A stretch of 61,517 bases of DNA from Candidatus Omnitrophota bacterium (GTDB taxonomy: Bacteria; Omnitrophota; Gorgyraeia; Zapsychrales; JANLHA01). Numbering within the stretch: the first letter of the stretch is position 1; every line of letters starts with the position of its first letter. Positions 416-44,879 of the stretch are shown piece after piece. Below the pieces are notes generated by a model. The model was not told the DNA's origin. It was given only the letters and a program-made list of their open reading frames with translations, and ran no database searches. The stretch is taken from assembly GCA_040753435.1 (NCBI GenBank), contig JBFMEN010000047.1, positions 1 to 61,517 on the forward strand, in the 5' to 3' direction. The position numbers were made by a program, and so were the translations under genes.

Positions 416-856
416 TCACTCCATATTAATCCAGACGCACGCGCCATCACCCGAATCCTGGCAAACAAATTCCAAATCTCCGTCAATATCGTAATTAATG
501 GTATAAAATACCGGTCCATTCTGCCGCAAGGCCTTTATATACCATATTTCTCCGGAGCCGGCACTCTGAACAGTAAAATAAAAATCATCACTCTGAATAT
601 CAAGATCCAGGGCCTCGTTAACATCTGCCGTATTTAAACAAACCGGCGTACTGTCTTTTCCACAAAAATCATATGATTTACTATGATCTACAGTAATCTG
701 TATTGCAGCAGCAATCTGCTGTAAATATAATTTGGCAGCGTTCACCGTTTGGATTTCCATGGCCTTTAAAAGATTGGGGAAAGCCAGCGATGCTAAAACT
801 CCAACAATAATGACAGTCACCATAACTTCGATCAAGGTAAAGGCCTTTTTTTTCAT
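416..856 (-). CDS. type IV pilin-like protein (class III signal peptide)
   Basis: MKKKA|FTLIEVMVTVIIVGVLA N-methylation motif; AAAGGAG SD before ATG 856; two Cys pairs including a C-terminal loop. Confidence 0.85.
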   Translation of the reverse strand: MKKKAFTLIEVMVTVIIVGVLASLAFPNLLKAMEIQTVNAAKLYLQQIAAAIQITVDHSKSYDFCGKDSTPVCLNTADVNEALDLDIQSDDFYFTVQSAGSGEIWYIKALRQNGPVFYTINYDIDGDLEFVCQDSGDGACVWINME

Positions 857-873
857 TTCATCGCTCCTTTCGA

Positions 874-3800
874 TCACAAAGTGACCGCAAAATTGTCTTC
901 ACCCACCATTTCTTTAATAGTATTAAATAAATGTTCATTGGGATGAACATAGAGATCTTTTCCTATCAGGATCTGGACGCTTTTAAATTTCGTGGTATTT
1001 AATTCCAAATAAACAGGAACTCTGCCCGGGAACCTCCCAAGCTGTTTCTTAAACCGGGCCAGGCCCTCTTGATCCATCCCGGCCAGATTAACTTTAACCG
1101 CCTTTATCGTTTCATAGACATCGCTAATCTTTTTTAAATCATCGCAAATAATATTTACAACTTCATCACGCAAGGCAGCCTTTCCAAGAATGATCACAAT
1201 CTGGCCCGGCTGCAAGCGTTCAGCCACCTTTTGATAAACAGATGGAAAAATAACTCCTTCAATACTTCCGAATACATCTTCCAATGTCACGATAGCCATG
1301 CGTTCCCCTGTTTTTCGGGTAGCGGTCAGCTTAACATCTGTGATCAATCCAACGAATTTAACAATTTGCCCTTCGGAAAAATGCGAAATCTCCTTCGAAG
1401 TTCCATTAGAAAATTTCTTAATCTCAAAACAATACTGCTCCAAAGGATGCCCGGAAACATAAAATCCGATTACCTCTTTTTCATAGGCAAGCATCTGACT
1501 TTGCGGCCACTCAGGAATATCAGGAACAGACTGGATATCCTCGCCGAAGCCATTATCGCTTTCTTCCATACCAAAGAAAGATAACTGGCCCGAAGATTTC
1601 TCTTTTTGATTACTCCCGCCAATATTCAATGCCTGATCACAAACGGCCATCAGTTGAGATCGCTTCTCCCCGAAGCAATCCAGCGCCCCGCATTTAATTA
1701 AGCTTTCCATAACTTTACGGTTCACTAAACGCAAATCAACCCGGGAACTGAGATCAAAAATGGATTGATAGGCCCCTTCCTCTTCACGGTTATGTATAAT
1801 TGACTCAATCGCAGTTTGGCCTATATTTTTAATTGCCAACAAGCCGAAGCGAATTCTTTTCTCGTCGACAACACTGAATTCAAGCACGCTTTCATTAATG
1901 CTCGCAGGCAGCACGGCAATCTTCAGGTTCTCACACTCCTTAACATACTCAACTATTTTATCCGTGTTATCCCGTTCGCATGTCAGCAATGAACACATAA
2001 ATTCAACCGGGTAATTCGCTTTCAGAAATGCCGTCTGATAAGAAACCATCGCATAAGCGGCGGAATGACTTTTATTAAATCCATACCCCGAAAAATAATC
2101 GATCAAATCGAACAGTTCATTGGCCTCCCGCTCCTCTATGCTGCTGAATTCTTTACATCCCCTGACAAAATCCTCCCGCATCCTAAGCATAACATCGACT
2201 TTTTTCTTGCTCATGGCCCGGCGAAGATTATCGGCCTGGGCCATGCTGAAACCGGCCAAAACGCTTGCCGTCTGCATAACCTGTTCCTGATAAACAATCA
2301 TTCCGTAAGTTTCTTTGAGTACCTTTTCGAGTTTTGGGTGAGGATAGACGACCTTGGCTTCTCCCTTTTTCCTCCGGACATAATCGTCGAGCATGCCGCT
2401 GCCCATTGGACCGGGGCGATAAAGCGCCAGAATGGTAATTAAATCTTCAAATTGGGAAGGCCGGCTTTTCCGCAGCAGTTCACGCATACCCGGGCTTTCC
2501 AGCTGGAAGATTCCTATGCTGTTTGCATTTGATAAAAGGGCGTATGTCTTTGGATCGTTAATGGGTATGTTTTCAATATCAAGCTTGATTCCTTTTGTCT
2601 GCTCCACCCATTTCACCGCTTTTGCAATCACAGTCAGGGTACGCAACCCAAGAAAGTCCATTTTGAGCAGTCCCATCTGGGCAATCCCGTCCATCGTATA
2701 GCCCGTGGTCATCTGGCCGTCCGTAGAACGGTATAAGGGAACATATTCGGTGAGGGGTTTATCGGAAATAACGACTCCGGCAGCATGGATCGAGGCATGC
2801 CTGTTGAGACCTTCAAGGACTTTGGCAGTATCGATAATATCTTTAGCCGTGCGGTCTTCCTCGCACATCTTGACAAGGCCAGGTTCGACTTCAAGGGCCT
2901 TCTCTATCGTCATTCCCAAATCCGGCGGAATAACTTTGGCAAGACGGTCGACATCAGCATAAGGAACTCCCATTACACGCCCGACATCCCTGACGGCAGC
3001 CCGGGCCTTCATTTTTCCAAAGGTAATAATCTGGGCGACATTGGAATCTCCATATTTGCTGGTAACATAACTAATGACTTCAGGACGTCGATCGAAACAG
3101 AAATCAATATCAATATCGGGCATCCCTGCGCGATTGGGGTTTAAAAATCTTTCAAAAAGCAATCCATACCGTAATGGATCCAGATTAGTGATTCCAAGCA
3201 AATAAGAAACAATGCTCCCGGCCGCCGAACCTCTCCCCGGGCCAACCGGGATGTCCTGGCTTTTTGCATAGTTAACGAAATCCCAGACAATAAGAAAATA
3301 AGGGACAAAGCCCGTTTCCTTGATAATTTCAAACTCATGCTTCAGACGAGACATGACTTCGGCTGGTTGACCACTGTAACGGGTCTGCATTCCCTTTAAG
3401 CACAGTTCCCACAAATAATCTTCCTGGGTCTTCCCTTGGGGAGGATCAAACCTGGGCAGATGATACTGATTAAAATTAAACTCCAAGTTGCATCGTTCCG
3501 CAATATCCACTGTGTTAGTCAATGCCTGGGGAATCCATGAGAACAGCCGGTGCATTTCTTCATACGACTTGAAATAAAATTGGTCTGATGCCATGCGCAT
3601 GCGTTTTTCGTCACTTAAAAATGCCTGGGTTTGAATGCATAGTAAGGCATCATGCGCCCTCCACTGATCCCTTTCAAGATAATGGACATCATTGCTTGCT
3701 GCGACCTGGATATTTAAATCCTTGGCAATCCTGACCAACCCCTCATTCACTTTTTTTTGCTCTGGAATCCCATGATCCATTAACTCGAGATAAAAATTCC

Positions 3801-6279: not shown

Positions 6280-7440
6280 CTATTTCCCCATCCCAACCCG
6301 TTGCCCTACCTGAAAAACCTTTCCCTCGGTTTGAATTGATGGGGCGATAATAATCTCGACATCATGTATGGCTTTAATTGTTTCTGCTCCAAGAGCCCCC
6401 ATAGACGCCTTAAGAGCGCCGACCAGATTTTGTGAACCATCATCAACCGTGGCGGGCCCTAACAAGATTTGTTCCAGAGTTCCGGTTGTTCCCACTCTAA
6501 TACGGGTACCTCTCGGAAGATTCGCATGAGGCATAGCCATCCCCCAATGGTATCCCCGGCCCGGAGCCTCTTCAGCTCTGGCAAAGGCGGAACCGACCAT
6601 ACAGGCATCAGCGCCGGCGGCAAAAGCTTTACATATTTCTCCACCAATCCTCATACCGCCATCTGTAATTATTGGAATATACTTCCCCGTTTTTTTATAA
6701 AAATGATCCCTTGCTGCTGAGGCATCAACTGTTGACGTGATCTGCGGAACTCCGATCCCAAGAACCCCGCGAGTTGTACAAGCTGCTCCGGGCCCGACCC
6801 CAATCAAAACAGCGCTTGCCCCCAGTTCCATTAATTCCAAGGTCATTTTGTAGGTTACGACATTACCAATGGCGATCGGCATTTTCGATTCCGAACATAA
6901 TTTTTCAAAATCACAAACTTTATATTCAGTTGAAACGTGTTTTGCTGAAGAAACCTGGGATTGAACAACCATACAGTCCGCTCCGGCCTTCTGTGCGATC
7001 TGACTGAATTGTTCAGCATGCTGGGGCACACAACCGACTACGGTAGGCACACCTGCTTTTTTAATCTCTTCAATTCGTTTCGCAATTAAACTTTCCTTTA
7101 TTTTTGGCAAATAGAGCTTCTGGAGTAATTCCGTGGCTTTTTCCGGTGAGGCATCTACAATTTCACTCAATACTTCATTCGGATCTTCATAACGGGTTTG
7201 TACTCCATCCAGATTTAAAACCGCAATACCCCCTAATTTACCCATAGCAATCGCAAAATTCACATCGACAACACCATCCATAGCCGCAGCCATGATCGGG
7301 ATTTCAAGCCTTGTTCCAGCAAATTCGCAGCTAATATCAACTTCGTTGGGATTAATCGTCATCATTCCAGGAACAAGGGCGACTTCATCAAAACCGTAAC
7401 AACGCCTAGCGCGACGGCCAATCCCTATCCACTCTGCCAT
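6280..7440 (-). CDS. guaB: IMP dehydrogenase, GuaB3-type (no CBS pair)
   Basis: GVGPGAACTTR catalytic loop, ITDGG, MVGS, N-terminal YGFDEVALVPG typical of the GuaB3 family; adjacent to guaA. Confidence 0.85.
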   Translation of the reverse strand: MAEWIGIGRRARRCYGFDEVALVPGMMTINPNEVDISCEFAGTRLEIPIMAAAMDGVVDVNFAIAMGKLGGIAVLNLDGVQTRYEDPNEVLSEIVDASPEKATELLQKLYLPKIKESLIAKRIEEIKKAGVPTVVGCVPQHAEQFSQIAQKAGADCMVVQSQVSSAKHVSTEYKVCDFEKLCSESKMPIAIGNVVTYKMTLELMELGASAVLIGVGPGAACTTRGVLGIGVPQITSTVDASAARDHFYKKTGKYIPIITDGGMRIGGEICKAFAAGADACMVGSAFARAEEAPGRGYHWGMAMPHANLPRGTRIRVGTTGTLEQILLGPATVDDGSQNLVGALKASMGALGAETIKAIHDVEIIIAPSIQTEGKVFQVGQRVGMGK

Positions 7441-7537
7441 AAAGACTCCTTTTTAAAATTTTCCCTAAGTATATGGAAAATAATAAGTTTTTTCCTTATT
7501 TGCTTTAAAAATTCTAATGGATTTAAAAATATATTTT

Positions 7538-7566
7538 AATATATATAAAGGAAAGCCCCATGTCAA
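7538..7566 (-). promoter_or_regulatory. sigma70-type promoter of guaB-guaA
   Basis: TTGACA (7566-7561), 17 nt, TATATT (7543-7538). Confidence 0.6.
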
Positions 7567-7704
7567 CTATAAAAAATGGAATCTCTGCAATTAAAGAGAA
7601 TACCCCATATTAAGGCAGTTAATATAAGCAAAACTCATGTTTTTTTATAAAAATTACCTTTTTAAAGTTGCGGGGGGCAGTAACACGGGGGCTGACTAGA
7701 TGGT

Positions 7705-8235
7705 TTAATTGATTCCTGATCCAATTCTGATCCCTTTAAACACGCCGGATCCGGCAATGACTATACCTGGGGTCTCTGCAATACAAAAACTATCGTAACA
7801 AAAACCGTTTGAGCCTGGAGCGTCCTCTTCACAAAACTGAAACACCAAAAAATCGTCTTCACTCCCCTCCTGAAACCTTGCCTCCTTTAAATAACAGTAG
7901 TATGCACGACCATCAGCGATATCGCAGCCGCTCGTTTCTCTAACAATTACAAAGTGATGCCCCGGAGCGTTGAAAGGGTCTTCAATGTCTAAGCCATCCA
8001 TGCCAGTAAGACAGCCGCTGTTTAACGCCAAAGCACATTGAACACTAGAACTATCAACGTTGTTCATTAGCAGACATCTCTGAACGGCACTATGTAATGT
8101 GTTAAAAGCCTGGAGCGCCTCGGCAGCATGAGAAGCTCTGATTACACCCACCAATCTCGGCAACGCTACGGCGGTTAAAACACCGATAATGATAATCACA
8201 ATTATAAGCTCTAGAAGAGTGAAACCTTTTTTCAT
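7705..8235 (-). CDS. type IV pilin paralog 1 (8 Cys)
   Basis: MKKG|FTLLELIIVIIIIG; start uncertain (ATG 8235, 8259 or 8271); paralogous to the next two genes. Confidence 0.85.
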   Translation of the reverse strand: MKKGFTLLELIIVIIIIGVLTAVALPRLVGVIRASHAAEALQAFNTLHSAVQRCLLMNNVDSSSVQCALALNSGCLTGMDGLDIEDPFNAPGHHFVIVRETSGCDIADGRAYYCYLKEARFQEGSEDDFLVFQFCEEDAPGSNGFCYDSFCIAETPGIVIAGSGVFKGIRIGSGIN

Positions 8236-8278
8236 CAAAAGAACTTTTTTGCCAAACATCCTTAAATTCATCAAACGC

Positions 8279-8863
8279 TTATGGCTCCGGTATAGGATTC
8301 GGAGGAAGTGGCGGCGGGTTGTCGATCACTGACGGAGAGGCATCCGTAACTCCCGGACCAATCCTGATCCATTTAAAAGCACCTGCGCCGACGATTGTCA
8401 CCCCTGCTGCTGCCTCAGTGCAAATATCTCCAGTGCAAAAGGTTAATCCCTCCTCAGTATTACTGCAAAACTGATAAATTATATAATCAGAATAATCATC
8501 AAGGCTTTCCTTTAAAGTCGCCCCGATTTGATAACAATAGGATTCGACCCCGCAGTGTGTATCCCATCCTGTTTTCATAAAATGGCTTCGGGGGTCATTG
8601 AAAGGATCATCCACATCCAGCACACCTTCATAAGCAATACACTGTGAAACAGCCAGGGCGTCGCAATCCACAGAAGAATCTCCAATACCACTCATTAGCA
8701 AACAACGGTCTATCGCGTCTTTGATTACAGAAAAAGATTGCATCGCTTCCGGCGCATAGGAAGACTTGACCATATCGACCAGTTTGGGCAGCCCCAGACT
8801 GGCCATTACGCTGATAATGATGATCACAACGATAAGCTCTAGAAGGGTGAAACCGTTTTTCAT
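8279..8863 (-). CDS. type IV pilin paralog 2 (8 Cys, Pro-rich C-tail)
   Basis: MKNG|FTLLELIVVIIIIS; same Cys scaffold; C-terminal NPPPLPPNPIPEP. Confidence 0.85.
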   Translation of the reverse strand: MKNGFTLLELIVVIIIISVMASLGLPKLVDMVKSSYAPEAMQSFSVIKDAIDRCLLMSGIGDSSVDCDALAVSQCIAYEGVLDVDDPFNDPRSHFMKTGWDTHCGVESYCYQIGATLKESLDDYSDYIIYQFCSNTEEGLTFCTGDICTEAAAGVTIVGAGAFKWIRIGPGVTDASPSVIDNPPPLPPNPIPEP

Positions 8864-8870
8864 CATAGGG

Positions 8871-8899
8871 ATGATAGCAAATAAAATTAAAGGAAACAA
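8871..8899 (-). promoter_or_regulatory. putative promoter of pilin 2 (leaderless geometry)
   Basis: TTGTTT (8899-8894), 17 nt, TGc-TATCAT (8876-8871); 7 nt to ATG 8863; no SD. Confidence 0.5.
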
Positions 8900-9046
8900 T
8901 CAGAATCAATAAATATTTAGTGAATTAAAAAAGGGGCAACTTTAAGAATCTTCAATGTTTCCTACTCAGTCAAAATTAAAATTTAACCTGCACGGGGAGG
9001 AGGAGCTGCAGAATGCTTGGTTTGTAATAAATTAAAGATTTAAACA

Positions 9047-9586
9047 TTAATTTATAATTCCAGGGCCGATCTTAACGCCTTTAAAGACCCCTGAACCGCC
9101 AATTGTTGTCCCTCCTGCAACTTTTAAGCACAAGTCATTAGCGCAGGTAGTTCCATTGGCACTGCCGCTGCAATATAACAACCTTAGAAAATCGACACTG
9201 GATCCTCCTTTTAATGCCGCTAATCTTGAATAACAGTAAGATAAGCTTCCAGTAATATTGGTAAAACAACTGCCGCCGAAACTACCCGTGAAAGAAAAGT
9301 GGCTTCCCGGAGAATCGAAAGGATTGCTTATGCCCAAATCATCAAAATCACCAAAGCAGCCGCTATCCCACAAAGAAGCACATGCGGAAAGTCTGGATTC
9401 ATTTATGTCGTTCATCATCAAGCATCGTTGCATGGATTTATTAATGATATTAAACGCCTGAATCGCTTCTGAAGCATGAGAAGCCTTAATCATACTCGCC
9501 AACTTCGGCAAAGCCAGACCGGTCATTACCCCGATGATAATAATGACGATGACGATTTCAAGAAGGGTAAATCCTTTTTTTCCCAT
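9047..9586 (-). CDS. type IV pilin paralog 3 (8 Cys)
   Basis: MGKKG|FTLLEIVIVIIIIG; same Cys scaffold and GSGVFKGxxIG C-terminus. Confidence 0.87.
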   Translation of the reverse strand: MGKKGFTLLEIVIVIIIIGVMTGLALPKLASMIKASHASEAIQAFNIINKSMQRCLMMNDINESRLSACASLWDSGCFGDFDDLGISNPFDSPGSHFSFTGSFGGSCFTNITGSLSYCYSRLAALKGGSSVDFLRLLYCSGSANGTTCANDLCLKVAGGTTIGGSGVFKGVKIGPGIIN

Positions 9587-9593
9587 AAAATTT

Positions 9594-9622
9594 AGAATAT
9601 CCTAAAAGAACTCCGAGTTCAA
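9594..9622 (-). promoter_or_regulatory. putative promoter of pilin 3 (leaderless geometry)
   Basis: TTGAAC (9622-9617), 17 nt, TATTCT (9599-9594); 7 nt to ATG 9586; no properly spaced SD. Confidence 0.45.
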
Positions 9623-9624
9623 AC

Positions 9625-9665
9625 AAAAAAAGAAAAAAGGGTAGAGATCTTCGCTCTACCCTTTT
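9625..9665 (-). terminator. intrinsic terminator after groEL
   Basis: aaaagggtagag-7 nt loop-ctctaccctttt perfect stem followed by a long T tract on the minus strand. Confidence 0.85.
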
Positions 9666-9697
9666 CATTTCCTGCTTGCGTTCTTTATCTGAACTAA

Positions 9698-11341
<1,644 letters not shown>

Positions 11342-18734: not shown

Positions 18735-19112
18735 TTAAATCTCCGCTTTCTGCATCATTGAATGAACATAGTCAGCAATGGCATTGGCATCTTTATCGGC
18801 AATATCGTTAAAATAAATGGCTGTATTATAATTTTCTTTATCTTCTGCCGGCTCAACGCGTACAATTACGCCTTCACATGAAATTTTCTTTGTCAAAATC
18901 TTTCCGTTTTTTTTGTAAGAAAGAAGCAGTTGAATTTTCAATTTTGTCATAGGGTCGATATATTTATCGACCTTGCAGAGAACCCCTGAACGGCTAAGGT
19001 TTTTAGCCTCCGTGACTGCGTCAAACTCTTCTCCGCAAATCTTAACAGGCACATTCCCTTTAACGCGGGGATGCCTTCTTCTTTCTTTTTCTAATCTGCC
19101 GAGATCAACCAC
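18735..19112 (-). CDS. stand-alone PilZ domain protein
   Basis: RRRHPR (RxxxR) and NLSRSG (D/NxSxxG) motifs; GTG start with GGAG SD. Confidence 0.88.
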   Translation of the reverse strand: MVDLGRLEKERRRHPRVKGNVPVKICGEEFDAVTEAKNLSRSGVLCKVDKYIDPMTKLKIQLLLSYKKNGKILTKKISCEGVIVRVEPAEDKENYNTAIYFNDIADKDANAIADYVHSMMQKAEI

Positions 19113-19272
19113 GATTTTCTCCGTTTTCAGAAATTATTCTGAAGTCTCTTCAGCCTTCGCATCTTTTCTTGATTTTGTCCAGCAATTCATGTTGCAATAA
19201 TAGCGGCTATTGCGATAAAAACGCTTTGCGGGCTTGACTGTTTTTTTACAAAAAGCACATTTTTTTAATTCT

Positions 19273-19644
19273 TCACTTATCTCGTGGGCCATTTAAAACC
19301 ACTCCTTTCAACGAAGAACGCCCTTCAAAACAATCTTCAAAACACTTTCGATAAAAATTATATAAAGGGTCATTCTGAAATTCTATTCCGAATTGGTAAT
19401 AATCCCCAAAAGGTTCCTTTTGGACCCATACAACCTTTCCTGAAATAATAAATTGATCGTGATCCCGCAACTGAAAACAGACGCGTAATTCAGTGCCTAA
19501 CGCTAAAAACTGTTGCGATCTTAATCGAACTCCCCCGCAACTCAAATCATAAGCCGCTGCACCCTCAAAGGTTTCAAATCGGCTGGTTTCTATCCCTGAA
19601 GGTTCCCTGAAAGGAATACGGCGAAAACGTCTATGTTCTGCCAC
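19273..19644 (-). CDS. stand-alone PilZ domain protein
   Basis: RRFRR and DLSCGG motifs, GKVVWV, YQFGIEF; GTG start with AAGGGG SD. Confidence 0.88.
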   Translation of the reverse strand: MAEHRRFRRIPFREPSGIETSRFETFEGAAAYDLSCGGVRLRSQQFLALGTELRVCFQLRDHDQFIISGKVVWVQKEPFGDYYQFGIEFQNDPLYNFYRKCFEDCFEGRSSLKGVVLNGPRDK

Positions 19645-19803: not shown

Positions 19804-20619
19804 ATGTATAACGATTTCTATGGATTCAGAGAAAATCCGTTTAACGTAACATCCGACCCGGATTTTTTCTTTCCAAGTTCCCAGCACGAAGAAGCCTTTT
19901 CTCATCTCGTTTTTGGAATAAAACAAAGAAAAGGAATCTTAACCATTACCGGGGAAATCGGTACGGGGAAAACCACTCTTTGCCGTTCCCTGATCCGGCG
20001 CCTAGATCCCAGCATAAAAAGCGCTTTGATTCTGAATCCATATTTCTCGGAAGCCCAGCTTTTGCGCTTGATCATCACTGACCTTGGGATTGAGGGCAAA
20101 TTTAAAAACAAACTGGATTTAATCCAGGCCCTGAATCATTATCTTTTACAAGAATCCGCCGAAGGAAACAACGTTGTGCTTATCATTGATGAAGCTCAGG
20201 ATCTGAAGCCTCCTCAATTGGAACAAATACGTCTGCTGTCCAATCTCGAAACAGATAAAAACAAACTGCTCCAGATTATTCTGGTCGGCCAGCCAGAGCT
20301 GCTGGATAAGCTTCATCTCGATTCACTGCGCCAGCTCAATCAACGTGTTTCAATCAGGTACCACATGCTCCCGCTTAAAAAAGAAGAGACCGCCAGATAC
20401 ATTATCCATCGATTACGCATTGCGAGCGGTTGCAAAGACACCGAAGATCTCCCTGTAAAATTTACCGAAGAGGCTTTTGAAGCTGTTTATCATTTTTCAA
20501 AAGGGACCCCGCGTCTTATCAACACAATCTCTGACCGTGCCCTGCTTAATGGATTCGTTAAAGAATCCCGAACCATTGATCAACAGATAATATGCCAAGC
20601 AGCACGGGAAACAACCTGA
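19804..20619 (+). CDS. ExeA/GspA/MshM-family AAA ATPase (no peptidoglycan-binding domain)
   Basis: MYxxFYGFxENPF, GEIGTGKT, LIIDEAQ, LVGQPEL, GTPRLIN. Confidence 0.9.
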   Translation: MYNDFYGFRENPFNVTSDPDFFFPSSQHEEAFSHLVFGIKQRKGILTITGEIGTGKTTLCRSLIRRLDPSIKSALILNPYFSEAQLLRLIITDLGIEGKFKNKLDLIQALNHYLLQESAEGNNVVLIIDEAQDLKPPQLEQIRLLSNLETDKNKLLQIILVGQPELLDKLHLDSLRQLNQRVSIRYHMLPLKKEETARYIIHRLRIASGCKDTEDLPVKFTEEAFEAVYHFSKGTPRLINTISDRALLNGFVKESRTIDQQIICQAARETT

Positions 20620-43811: not shown

Positions 43812-44879
43812 CTATTTGTATTTACCAATATTAAGCAACTGTTTAAATTCTTCGATGTTCTTAACGTAAGGAATCGCGTCCTCATAGGAAATGATCCCCT
43901 CGCGAAAAAGAAGCTGCAGGGATTTATCCATGCTATGCATGCCATAAGCGCTTCCTGTTTGAATCGCAGTAGGAAGTTGCTCTATCGCCTGTTCGCGAAT
44001 AAGATTTCTCACTGCAGGAGTAGCAATCATAACCTCTGTCGCCAGGACACGCCCCGCCCCGTCGGCACGGGAAAGGAGATTTTGAGAAATGACTCCCTGC
44101 AAAGCGGAAGCCAGTTGGAGCTTGACTTGCGTTTGTTGATGAGAAGGGAAAACATCTATGATCCTCTGGATTGTTTGAGGAGCATCCGGCGTATGGAGGG
44201 TCGCGAGCACCAAATGACCTGTTTCCGCGGCTGTCAGCGCCGTTGCAATTGTTTCGAGATCCCTCATCTCACCCACGACGATAATATCCGGATCCTGTCG
44301 CAAAGAACGCTTTAATGCCTCGGCAAATGAATTAGTATCGGCAAAGACCTCCCTCTGCTTAATAATGCTCTTTTTATTAAAATGCATATATTCAATAGGA
44401 TCCTCTATCATGATAATCAGATTCTCGCGTTCTTCATTGATAAGGTTAATTATGGCTGCCAGGGTTGTGGTTTTCCCGGTTCCTGTCGGGCCTGTCACGA
44501 GGACAAGACCATTTTTCTTGCGAGCCAAATCGGCCATAACGGGAGGGAGTCCCAGTTCTTCCATGGTTGGAATAAATAAAGGAATACGCCGAAAGGCAGC
44601 TTCTACAGAGCCGCGCTGAATATGGACATTTACGCGATATCGGTCCATCCCCGATAACGCCAAAGAAAAATCGAGTTCTTTTTCAACTTCGATTTTCTCT
44701 TTCTGACGATCGGAAAGAATTCCATAAATCAACCTCTTAAGAGCATCCTTGGTCATAGGTTCGAAATCAGTAGGAACGAGTTTTCCGTCAATGCGCAGGA
44801 TCGGCGGGGAGTCGTAAGTCAAATGAATATCAGAGGCCCTTTTATCGTTGGCCATAATCAAAAGGTCACGAAGTTCCAT
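43812..44879 (-). CDS. pilT: type IV pilus retraction ATPase
   Basis: ASDIHL, GPTGTGKTTT, EDPIE, LRQDPD, AETGH, TLHT, AVRNLIRE. Confidence 0.94.
   Translation of the reverse strand: MELRDLLIMANDKRASDIHLTYDSPPILRIDGKLVPTDFEPMTKDALKRLIYGILSDRQKEKIEVEKELDFSLALSGMDRYRVNVHIQRGSVEAAFRRIPLFIPTMEELGLPPVMADLARKKNGLVLVTGPTGTGKTTTLAAIINLINEERENLIIMIEDPIEYMHFNKKSIIKQREVFADTNSFAEALKRSLRQDPDIIVVGEMRDLETIATALTAAETGHLVLATLHTPDAPQTIQRIIDVFPSHQQTQVKLQLASALQGVISQNLLSRADGAGRVLATEVMIATPAVRNLIREQAIEQLPTAIQTGSAYGMHSMDKSLQLLFREGIISYEDAIPYVKNIEEFKQLLNIGKYK

Follow-up and report, generated by a model that had tools for sequence, protein, structure and literature searches.

The non-core minor pilins of Neisseria (ComP, PilV and PilX) are major-pilin-like paralogs encoded away from the pilus machinery that co-assemble into the fibre and change its properties. 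Multiple alternative major pilins are known from Thermus thermophilus, whose PilA4 and PilA5 form wide and narrow pili (PDB 6xxd, 6xxe and 8qqj), and from Myxococcus, with its several pilA genes; linked pilin paralogs made of conserved and variable segments also occur in the pilE/pilS system of Neisseria. Most type IV pilins have one disulfide, and the two disulfides of ComP have been described as unique (PMC4906244). Type-4a pili are near-universal in Omnitrophota and have been proposed to mediate host attachment there (PMC10066038). Here we describe three neighbouring type IV pilin genes, pil1, pil2 and pil3 (the trio), which lie at positions 7705–9586 of a 61,517-nucleotide stretch of DNA from a Candidatus Omnitrophota bacterium (assembly GCA_040753435.1, contig JBFMEN010000047.1). 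This whole stretch is called the window below.

The trio resembles the Neisseria minor pilins in its orphan location and in a full pilin architecture with Glu+5, and would share with ComP, which has two, the presence of more than one disulfide. It differs from them in showing no head sequence or Foldseek similarity, in the positions of its cysteines and in having eight of these rather than four; its acidic heads also contrast with DNA-binding basic surfaces. As in Thermus and Myxococcus, several pilin genes could build or join the fibre of a shared machinery, and the helix of the trio matches the PDB entries named above. The Thermus and Myxococcus pilins, however, have at most one disulfide, and their differential use has been shown experimentally. 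Alternative or accessory pilus subunits are probably the best reading of the trio. In its full form, to which we assign a probability of roughly 0.6, this reading holds that Pil1–Pil3 are type IV pilin subunits and old paralogs of the pilin encoded in the organism's pilus cluster on contig C1, that they enter a fibre through the C1-type machine as alternative or interspersed subunits, that each carries four intramolecular disulfides, and that their loops and charge vary the fibre surface.

Three pilin paralogs with a shared cysteine pattern

All three genes are on the minus strand. pil1 (9047–9586) encodes a prepilin of 179 residues that starts at ATG 9586 with the leader MGKKG↓FTLLE and has a head isoelectric point (pI) of about 6.9. 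pil2 (8279–8866) encodes 195 residues from a likely ATG at 8866 (alternative TTG at 8899), and pil3 (7705–8235) encodes 176 residues from a likely ATG at 8235 (alternatives at 8259, 8271 and 8274); their heads are acidic, with pI values of 4.1 and 4.5, respectively. The full open reading frames (ORFs) extend over 9047–9586, 8279–8899 and 7705–8274, and the candidate pil3 start at 8271 lies 7 nucleotides past the pil2 stop. The trio is flanked by groEL (9698–11341, PF00118) and by an IMPDH/GMP-reductase-family gene (6280–7440, PF00478) that adjoins guaA. The ORFs and the flanking Pfam domains agree with a preliminary description of the window, which had reported three same-strand pilin paralogs between groEL and guaB.

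Each protein has a short basic leader and a K/N-G↓FTLLE site followed by a hydrophobic helix, and Glu+5 and the assembly helix are fully conserved. All three pass the prepilin models PF07963 (24.1–27.8 bits, cut-off 21.2) and TIGR02532 (26.4–31.3 bits, cut-off 16.3). Every mature protein contains exactly eight cysteines in the same order, the first at the end of alpha1 and the last in the penultimate strand: 50/64/72/102/113/134/143/148 in Pil1, 50/63/71/100/106/129/139/144 in Pil2 and 50/63/71/100/110/131/142/147 in Pil3 (mature numbering). The motifs (D/N)PF..P..HF and G(S/A)G.FK.(I/V).IG are likewise present in three of three copies, so that the class III signal, the matching cysteines and the motifs quoted in the preliminary description all recur in the translations. 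Pairwise protein identity is 44–48% overall, with 53–66% in the N-terminal helix and 39–40% in the head, and the indels are located in the beta1-beta2 hairpin and in loops between cysteines. This bears out the strong divergence that had been noted between the cysteines.

At the DNA level the three genes are 56–57% identical. Their synonymous differences are saturated (proportion of synonymous differences, pS, about 0.72–0.81) and the corresponding nonsynonymous proportion, pN, is lower, at 0.32–0.36, which indicates that the genes are under purifying selection and were duplicated long ago; because of the saturation, dN/dS values for the loops have no meaning. The only repeated DNA within 7400–9800 is a 134-nucleotide stretch coding for the N-terminus, at 70–71% identity. 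pil1–pil3 are therefore old, diverged paralogs.

To examine the fold, AlphaFold2 models were made of full-length Pil1 (alignment of 22 sequences) and of the Pil3 head (21 sequences). Both were of high quality, with a predicted local distance difference test (pLDDT) of 93.0 and a predicted template-modelling score (pTM) of 0.81 for Pil1 and 93.6 and 0.87 for the Pil3 head. In both, the long alpha1 helix (H8–58) is followed by an alpha-beta loop with one or two short helices and by a sheet of six antiparallel strands. This is the lollipop architecture of pilins, in which a long N-terminal helix packs onto a head of antiparallel beta-sheet. Foldseek searches of the PDB with full-length and head-only models returned nothing at E < 0.001 in a run that had no standard-pilin positive control; the best global match was M. 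xanthus PilA (8tj2), with a non-significant TMq of 0.47. A PDB sequence search with the family profile matched solved pilins in the N-terminal helix only. The general pilin architecture is thus present, but among solved structures none is close to the head.

Curated families of pilins and pseudopilins leave the head of the trio uncovered, and models other than the two prepilin models match the helix only, far below their cut-offs. Together with the absence of a significant PDB neighbour, this supports the preliminary description, which a match to a characterised minor-pilin or pseudopilin family would have contradicted. Assignment to the type II secretion system pseudopilins (GspG/H/J) was rejected on helix-only matches of 33–36 bits to TIGR01710 (cut-off 88.85) and 25–32 bits to TIGR01708 (cut-off 80). 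A classical type IVa major pilin of the PilA/PilE kind was rejected as well, since the eight cysteines are spread along the protein and do not follow the pattern of a single C-terminal D-region disulfide. Two C-terminal tails were observed beyond the conserved last strand: Pil2 ends in a 20-residue proline-rich tail, TDASPSVIDNPPPLPPNPIPEP (window 8279–8341), and a paralog on contig C7 of the same genome ends in TTATSPPSFFWW (C7:17059–17100). Both tails would be expected to project from the fibre.

Relation to the cluster-encoded pilin

A word-indexed search of 5.8 billion proteins with the trio gave 15 matches, which beyond the window's own proteins were mostly shorter pilins of 125–171 residues. 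The typical short relative has about 135 residues, two cysteines and the pattern ERCY(L)...C...LD(I/V)(E/D)DP...HF...ATRN.DGG...G..F..I. In named Omnitrophota metagenome-assembled genomes and in congeners, this two-cysteine pilin is the first in a run of pilin genes and is followed by three to four minor-type pilins; examples of such first pilins, about 132–138 residues long, are C1:4298–4714 in this genome and those of loci L051, L052, L058 and L059. It is presumably the organism's major pilin. Its cysteine pair, which is ancestral in the family, lies in alpha1 and the alpha-beta loop. When the heads of the trio and the C7 paralog were aligned by hhalign with 12 heads of short two-cysteine pilins, the probability was 98.3% (E = 2e-14) and the short head was covered end to end (query 1–131, template 1–96 of 96). 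Relative to the short pilin, the trio has an insertion in the alpha-beta loop with one extra cysteine, an insertion in the beta1-beta2 hairpin with one cysteine, and an insertion of about 18 residues ahead of the last strand with three cysteines; the sixth additional cysteine, in the YCY motif, occupies a core position in beta2.

By these alignments, the trio is best described as an enlarged offshoot of the ordinary two-cysteine, cluster-encoded Omnitrophota pilin and not as a free-standing new family. The proposal that it forms a pilin subfamily of its own thus stands for the shared cysteine-rich scaffold with divergent loops, and fails for a free-standing scaffold, as the hhalign result shows homology to the cluster pilin. 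The cluster pilin, which is experimentally uncharacterised and partly covered by PF16732, shares with the trio a near-identical assembly helix, the RC...C pair, LDI(E/D)DP..P..HF, the central strands and the C-terminal G.G.FK.I strand. In contrast, the trio is about 40 residues longer through its three insertions, has six more cysteines, lies outside any pilus cluster, has no Shine-Dalgarno sequence and is confined to one genus.

The closest relatives of the trio form a small and very rare group. The C7 paralog (C7:17059–17589), the fourth of its kind in this genome, has six cysteines and is without the fourth (Cys C4) and one of the two loop cysteines (Cys C2 or C3). When the head profile was run exhaustively with HMMER against 1.84 billion cluster representatives, 22 proteins passed E <= 1e-3 and six of them passed E <= 1e-10. 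This genome accounts for four of the six, and the other two, P0019 from a same-genus genome and P0018 from a 796-bp contig, have six cysteines each. Within the same order, 11 of 61 genomes reached E <= 1e-3, but a strong full-length match was found only in this genome and in G003; a third genome, G023, had a weak near-full-length match (E 4e-7). Across the phylum, 3 of 401 genomes matched at E <= 1e-5, all of them in one of 282 genera, and no relatives were found when Joint Genome Institute (JGI) metagenome contigs were scanned with the head profile. The profile search across Omnitrophota, set beforehand, therefore shows several copies of the clade in this genome and none in most congeners, which is not the pattern of conserved single-copy genes.

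In a maximum-likelihood tree, the six sequences fell into one clade with support of 90/84, unresolved inside and with long terminal branches of 0.6–0.75. The core family has two cysteines, the C7 paralog, the G003 ortholog and P0018 have six, and the trio has eight. Since the members with six and eight cysteines form one clade, the number of cysteines rose from 2 to 6 to 8, always in even steps. The eight-cysteine scaffold that had been called invariant is so among the three copies, while their closest relatives have six.

Enlargement of the cluster pilin is not peculiar to this clade. Six genomes of the genus contain 12–22 prepilin-type ORFs each in about 2 Mb. Among these, the cluster-pilin family is represented by further enlarged orphans that have 2, 4, 6 or 10 cysteines, some of them arranged as tandem or divergent pairs. 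Enlargement and cysteine enrichment of the cluster-pilin family have happened repeatedly in the genus, and the trio exemplifies a wider tendency of the lineage. One divergent pair of enlarged cluster-pilin paralogs (G005:C30:17800–20800; L055/L139) has 10 and 6 cysteines in quite different patterns, and a tandem pair of two-cysteine paralogs of 158–165 residues occurs on contig C1 of genome G001. In the genome studied here, two further prepilin-type ORFs (C40:4440–5066 and C71:42235–42708) have very cysteine-dense tails (for example ...VPCCCRNACPSITARCSGTGCGCN); one of them has an odd count of nine cysteines, and their heads are unrelated to the trio.

Assembly, disulfides and competing explanations

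The C1 pilus locus (C1:2853–12218), which is compact and complete, encodes, in this order, a PilM-PilN fusion (501 residues), PilO, a 164-residue protein of unknown function, a secretin, PilB, PilC and four pilins. PilB carries an MshEN N-domain, which is of the c-di-GMP-binding type, and directly after PilB and PilC come the 138-residue two-cysteine first pilin (C1:4298–4714) and then three minor pilins. A second pilus locus is on contig C56, and the genome further contains two prepilin peptidase (Peptidase_A24) genes, four PilB-like ATPases together with PilT-like ATPases, and about 20 prepilin-type genes. Because the assembly helix of the trio is identical to that of the C1 pilin at 19–20 of 30 positions (against 11–12 of 30 for the C56 pilin), a C1-type machine is the likely one to polymerise the trio.

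These observations point to the following scheme. The prepilins Pil1–Pil3 would be cleaved by PilD and polymerised by the C1-type machine, either as alternative main subunits or as low-abundance subunits interspersed in the fibre. The eight cysteines may pair within each molecule as four disulfides and so brace the enlarged head, and the divergent loops, together with the differing head pI (6.9, 4.1 and 4.5), would give the fibre different surfaces, which could plausibly serve attachment to different partners or substrates. As type-4a pili have been proposed as the attachment organ of Omnitrophota (PMC10066038), we infer that recognition of partners or substrates is the most plausible use.

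The cysteine-rich pilin variants are probably disulfide-braced. In this genome, 15 of the 16 cysteine-containing prepilin ORFs have an even count, from 2 to 10, compared with 46% of exported-like proteins overall (P about 8e-5, or about 7e-4 by hand calculation when the four paralogs are counted as one). In the AlphaFold2 models the cysteines of the trio are placed on neighbouring strands and loops. Both the even counts and the stepwise rise from 2 through 6 to 8 would be consistent with disulfides. Literature searches on cysteine-rich or four-disulfide type IV pilins returned nothing relevant.

Several points weigh against the scheme of disulfide-braced subunits assembled by the C1-type machine. 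Helix similarity is the one feature by which the trio can be tied to that machine. Neither DsbB nor VKOR was detected in the genome, which is 94.8% complete; of two membrane-anchored DsbA-like thioredoxin-fold proteins, one (C3:39953–40396) has the motif CSFC and the other (C71:10723–11208) CPFS, so that there is only one CxxC. Genome-wide, exported-like proteins selected with a crude signal-peptide filter show no bias towards even cysteine counts. The connectivity is ambiguous as well, with P0020 and P0031 pointing to the pairs C4-C5 and C6-C7 and the joint losses in the six-cysteine members to a pairing of C4 with C2 or C3. Finally, the lack of a Shine-Dalgarno sequence in the trio and the C7 paralog would argue against very high expression, or for a different mode of initiation.

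Whether the cysteines are bonded and whether the proteins are fibre subunits at all are separate matters. The trio could consist of pilins in which not all, or none, of the cysteines form disulfides and in which they ligate a structural zinc or iron or stay reduced. Such an arrangement would be expected of an anaerobe that lacks a re-oxidation pathway, in agreement with the missing DsbB and VKOR and the absence of parity bias among exported-like proteins; an invariant histidine in the HF motif lies beside the cysteine-bearing region, and PilJ of Clostridioides difficile has a structural zinc with cysteine ligands. The trio, however, contains no CxxC or CxxH motif of the metal-binding type, the gain in even steps and the 15 of 16 even prepilins speak for pairing, one membrane-anchored DsbA-like protein with CSFC is present, and the cysteines in the models are spread along strands and loops as stapling sites would be. 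We regard metal-bound or reduced cysteines as unlikely. We give about as little weight to the idea that the proteins are no fibre subunits. They would then be surface proteins that merely use the prepilin route for export and processing, or else pseudopilins building a short endopilus in the periplasm. Orphan genes without adjacent machinery, the missing Shine-Dalgarno sequences and a stock of about 20 prepilin-type genes, which exceeds the needs of two pilus clusters, would all suit this idea. Yet the models of GspG, GspH and GspJ stay far below their cut-offs and touch the helix only, conservation of Glu+5 and of the assembly helix is complete, and the head has its homologue in the pilin that comes first, and is presumably the major one, in clusters that encode PilM/N/O, a secretin and an MshE-type ATPase.

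Two further explanations borrow from Neisseria. That the trio are DNA-receptor minor pilins like ComP is brought to mind by the C1 first pilin, which scores 33.6 bits on PF16732 (ComP_DUS; cut-off 27.3), and by precomputed PF16732 matches in short relatives. The trio itself has no match to this family even at E <= 1. The ComP disulfides C76-C125 and C118-C139 delimit a C-terminal DD region (PMC4906244), a pattern different from that found here, in which alpha1 and the alpha-beta loop are joined by the ancestral pair. With head pI values of 4.1, 4.5 and 6.9, two of the three heads are strongly acidic, and we consider a ComP-type DNA receptor very improbable and have set it aside. The preliminary description had also spoken of a cassette of interchangeable subunits. 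Taken as a pilE/pilS-type cassette for antigenic or phase variation, whose copies exchange sequence by recombination, the term finds some support in tandem, same-strand paralogs with conserved and variable segments, the very likeness to pilE/pilS. It is contradicted by three complete genes, each with its own signal peptide, where pilE/pilS would have silent truncated copies and high-identity tracts; the copies are anciently diverged (56–57% DNA identity with saturated dS), the longest shared DNA is the N-terminal stretch of 134 nucleotides at 70–71% identity, and no flanking repeats surround the trio. The recombinational sense of the word therefore has to be dropped, and such a cassette is of almost negligible likelihood. 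Of the explanations considered, accessory or alternative subunits of the pilus fibre accord best with the conserved helix and the homology of the heads.

The groEL/IMPDH gap and its signals

The gap that holds the trio, between groEL and the IMPDH-family gene (window 7441–9697), was compared in five same-genus genomes (loci L047, L048, L049, L050 and L023), and its content varies. G001 and G002 have a spacer of 216–247 nucleotides only, G005 has four unrelated genes (NAD-binding, methyltransferase, polyprenyl-synthase-like and one unknown), G004 has a gene for a 1286-residue protein without Pfam domains, and G003 has one six-cysteine pilin adjoining the IMPDH-family gene, after which its contig ends. 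No integrase, tRNA or repeats were seen at the gap borders. Because the gap differs between congeners, the trio is accessory cargo of a variable spot.

A strong intrinsic terminator with a 13-bp stem and a T-run follows groEL (9634–9666, minus strand) and separates the pilin array from the groES-groEL transcript. In the region upstream of pil1 (9587–9633, minus strand), the sequence TTGAAC-17 nucleotides-TATTCT, read by eye and below the threshold of the promoter scan, ends 7 nucleotides ahead of the ATG. The spacer between pil1 and pil2 (8867–9046, minus strand; 180 nucleotides) has a TATCAT ending 4 nucleotides ahead of ATG 8866. The spacer after pil3 (7441–7704, minus strand) is the downstream edge of the array and carries a promoter-like TTGACA-17-TATATT (7566–7538) and a strong Shine-Dalgarno sequence that belong to the IMPDH-family gene. 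The promoter scan showed no excess of sites over shuffled sequence, and no site ahead of the pilins was above threshold.

A Shine-Dalgarno sequence is missing in six of six clade members, namely the trio, the C7 paralog, the G003 ortholog and P0018 (regions inspected: 9587–9633, 8867–8920 and 8236–8278 in the window, C7:17602–17650, L023:1–66 and L131:40–138). In most of them a -10-like hexamer (TATTCT, TATCAT, TATAAA or TAGAAT) ends 4–8 nucleotides ahead of the ATG. Strong AGGAG sites precede the cluster-encoded pilins (C1 and C56), groES, groEL and the IMPDH-family gene. This pattern suggests leaderless or otherwise unusual translation initiation that has been retained since the ancient duplications.

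The preliminary description had noted that no assembly genes are adjacent, and none for the pilus occurs within about 10 kb of the trio; the only pilus motor gene in the window is 34 kb away and encodes a PilT-like, retraction-type ATPase of 355 residues (43812–44879, minus strand). A fourth prepilin-type gene of the window (416–877, minus strand; 153 residues, four cysteines) follows dnaE directly and falls outside the eight-cysteine clade. It overlaps the dnaE stop by 4 nucleotides, and dnaE is an odd partner for a pilin gene. The window also contains two stand-alone PilZ genes (18735–19644) and an AAA_22 ExeA-like gene (19804–20619).

Taken to its furthest extent, the evidence would describe the trio and its three six-cysteine relatives as pilins with a head unseen in solved structures, braced by three to four disulfides, more than in any pilin we found described, oxidised by an unknown route without DsbB or VKOR, translated from leaderless or Shine-Dalgarno-less mRNAs, and serving as species-specific attachment subunits that a possibly host-dependent bacterium swaps for different partners. 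This combination as a whole is doubtful. In itself the trio is an unusual variant of a well-known protein type and not a new system, and the restriction of the clade to a single genus limits its practical reach. Type IV pili are nevertheless regarded as the chief organ by which Omnitrophota make contact, and many of these bacteria are apparently host-dependent. The trio shows how the phylum's ordinary pilus subunit has been remodelled, with paired cysteines and surface loops added and the gene duplicated and parked in a variable spot. Should all four disulfides exist, no other type IV pilins that we found described would be so heavily cross-braced, and this in an organism without recognisable DsbB or VKOR. 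With soluble heads of 150 residues, the trio would then offer a small and manageable system in which to study how proteins fold oxidatively in uncultured, anaerobe-like lineages and how pilus surfaces diversify.

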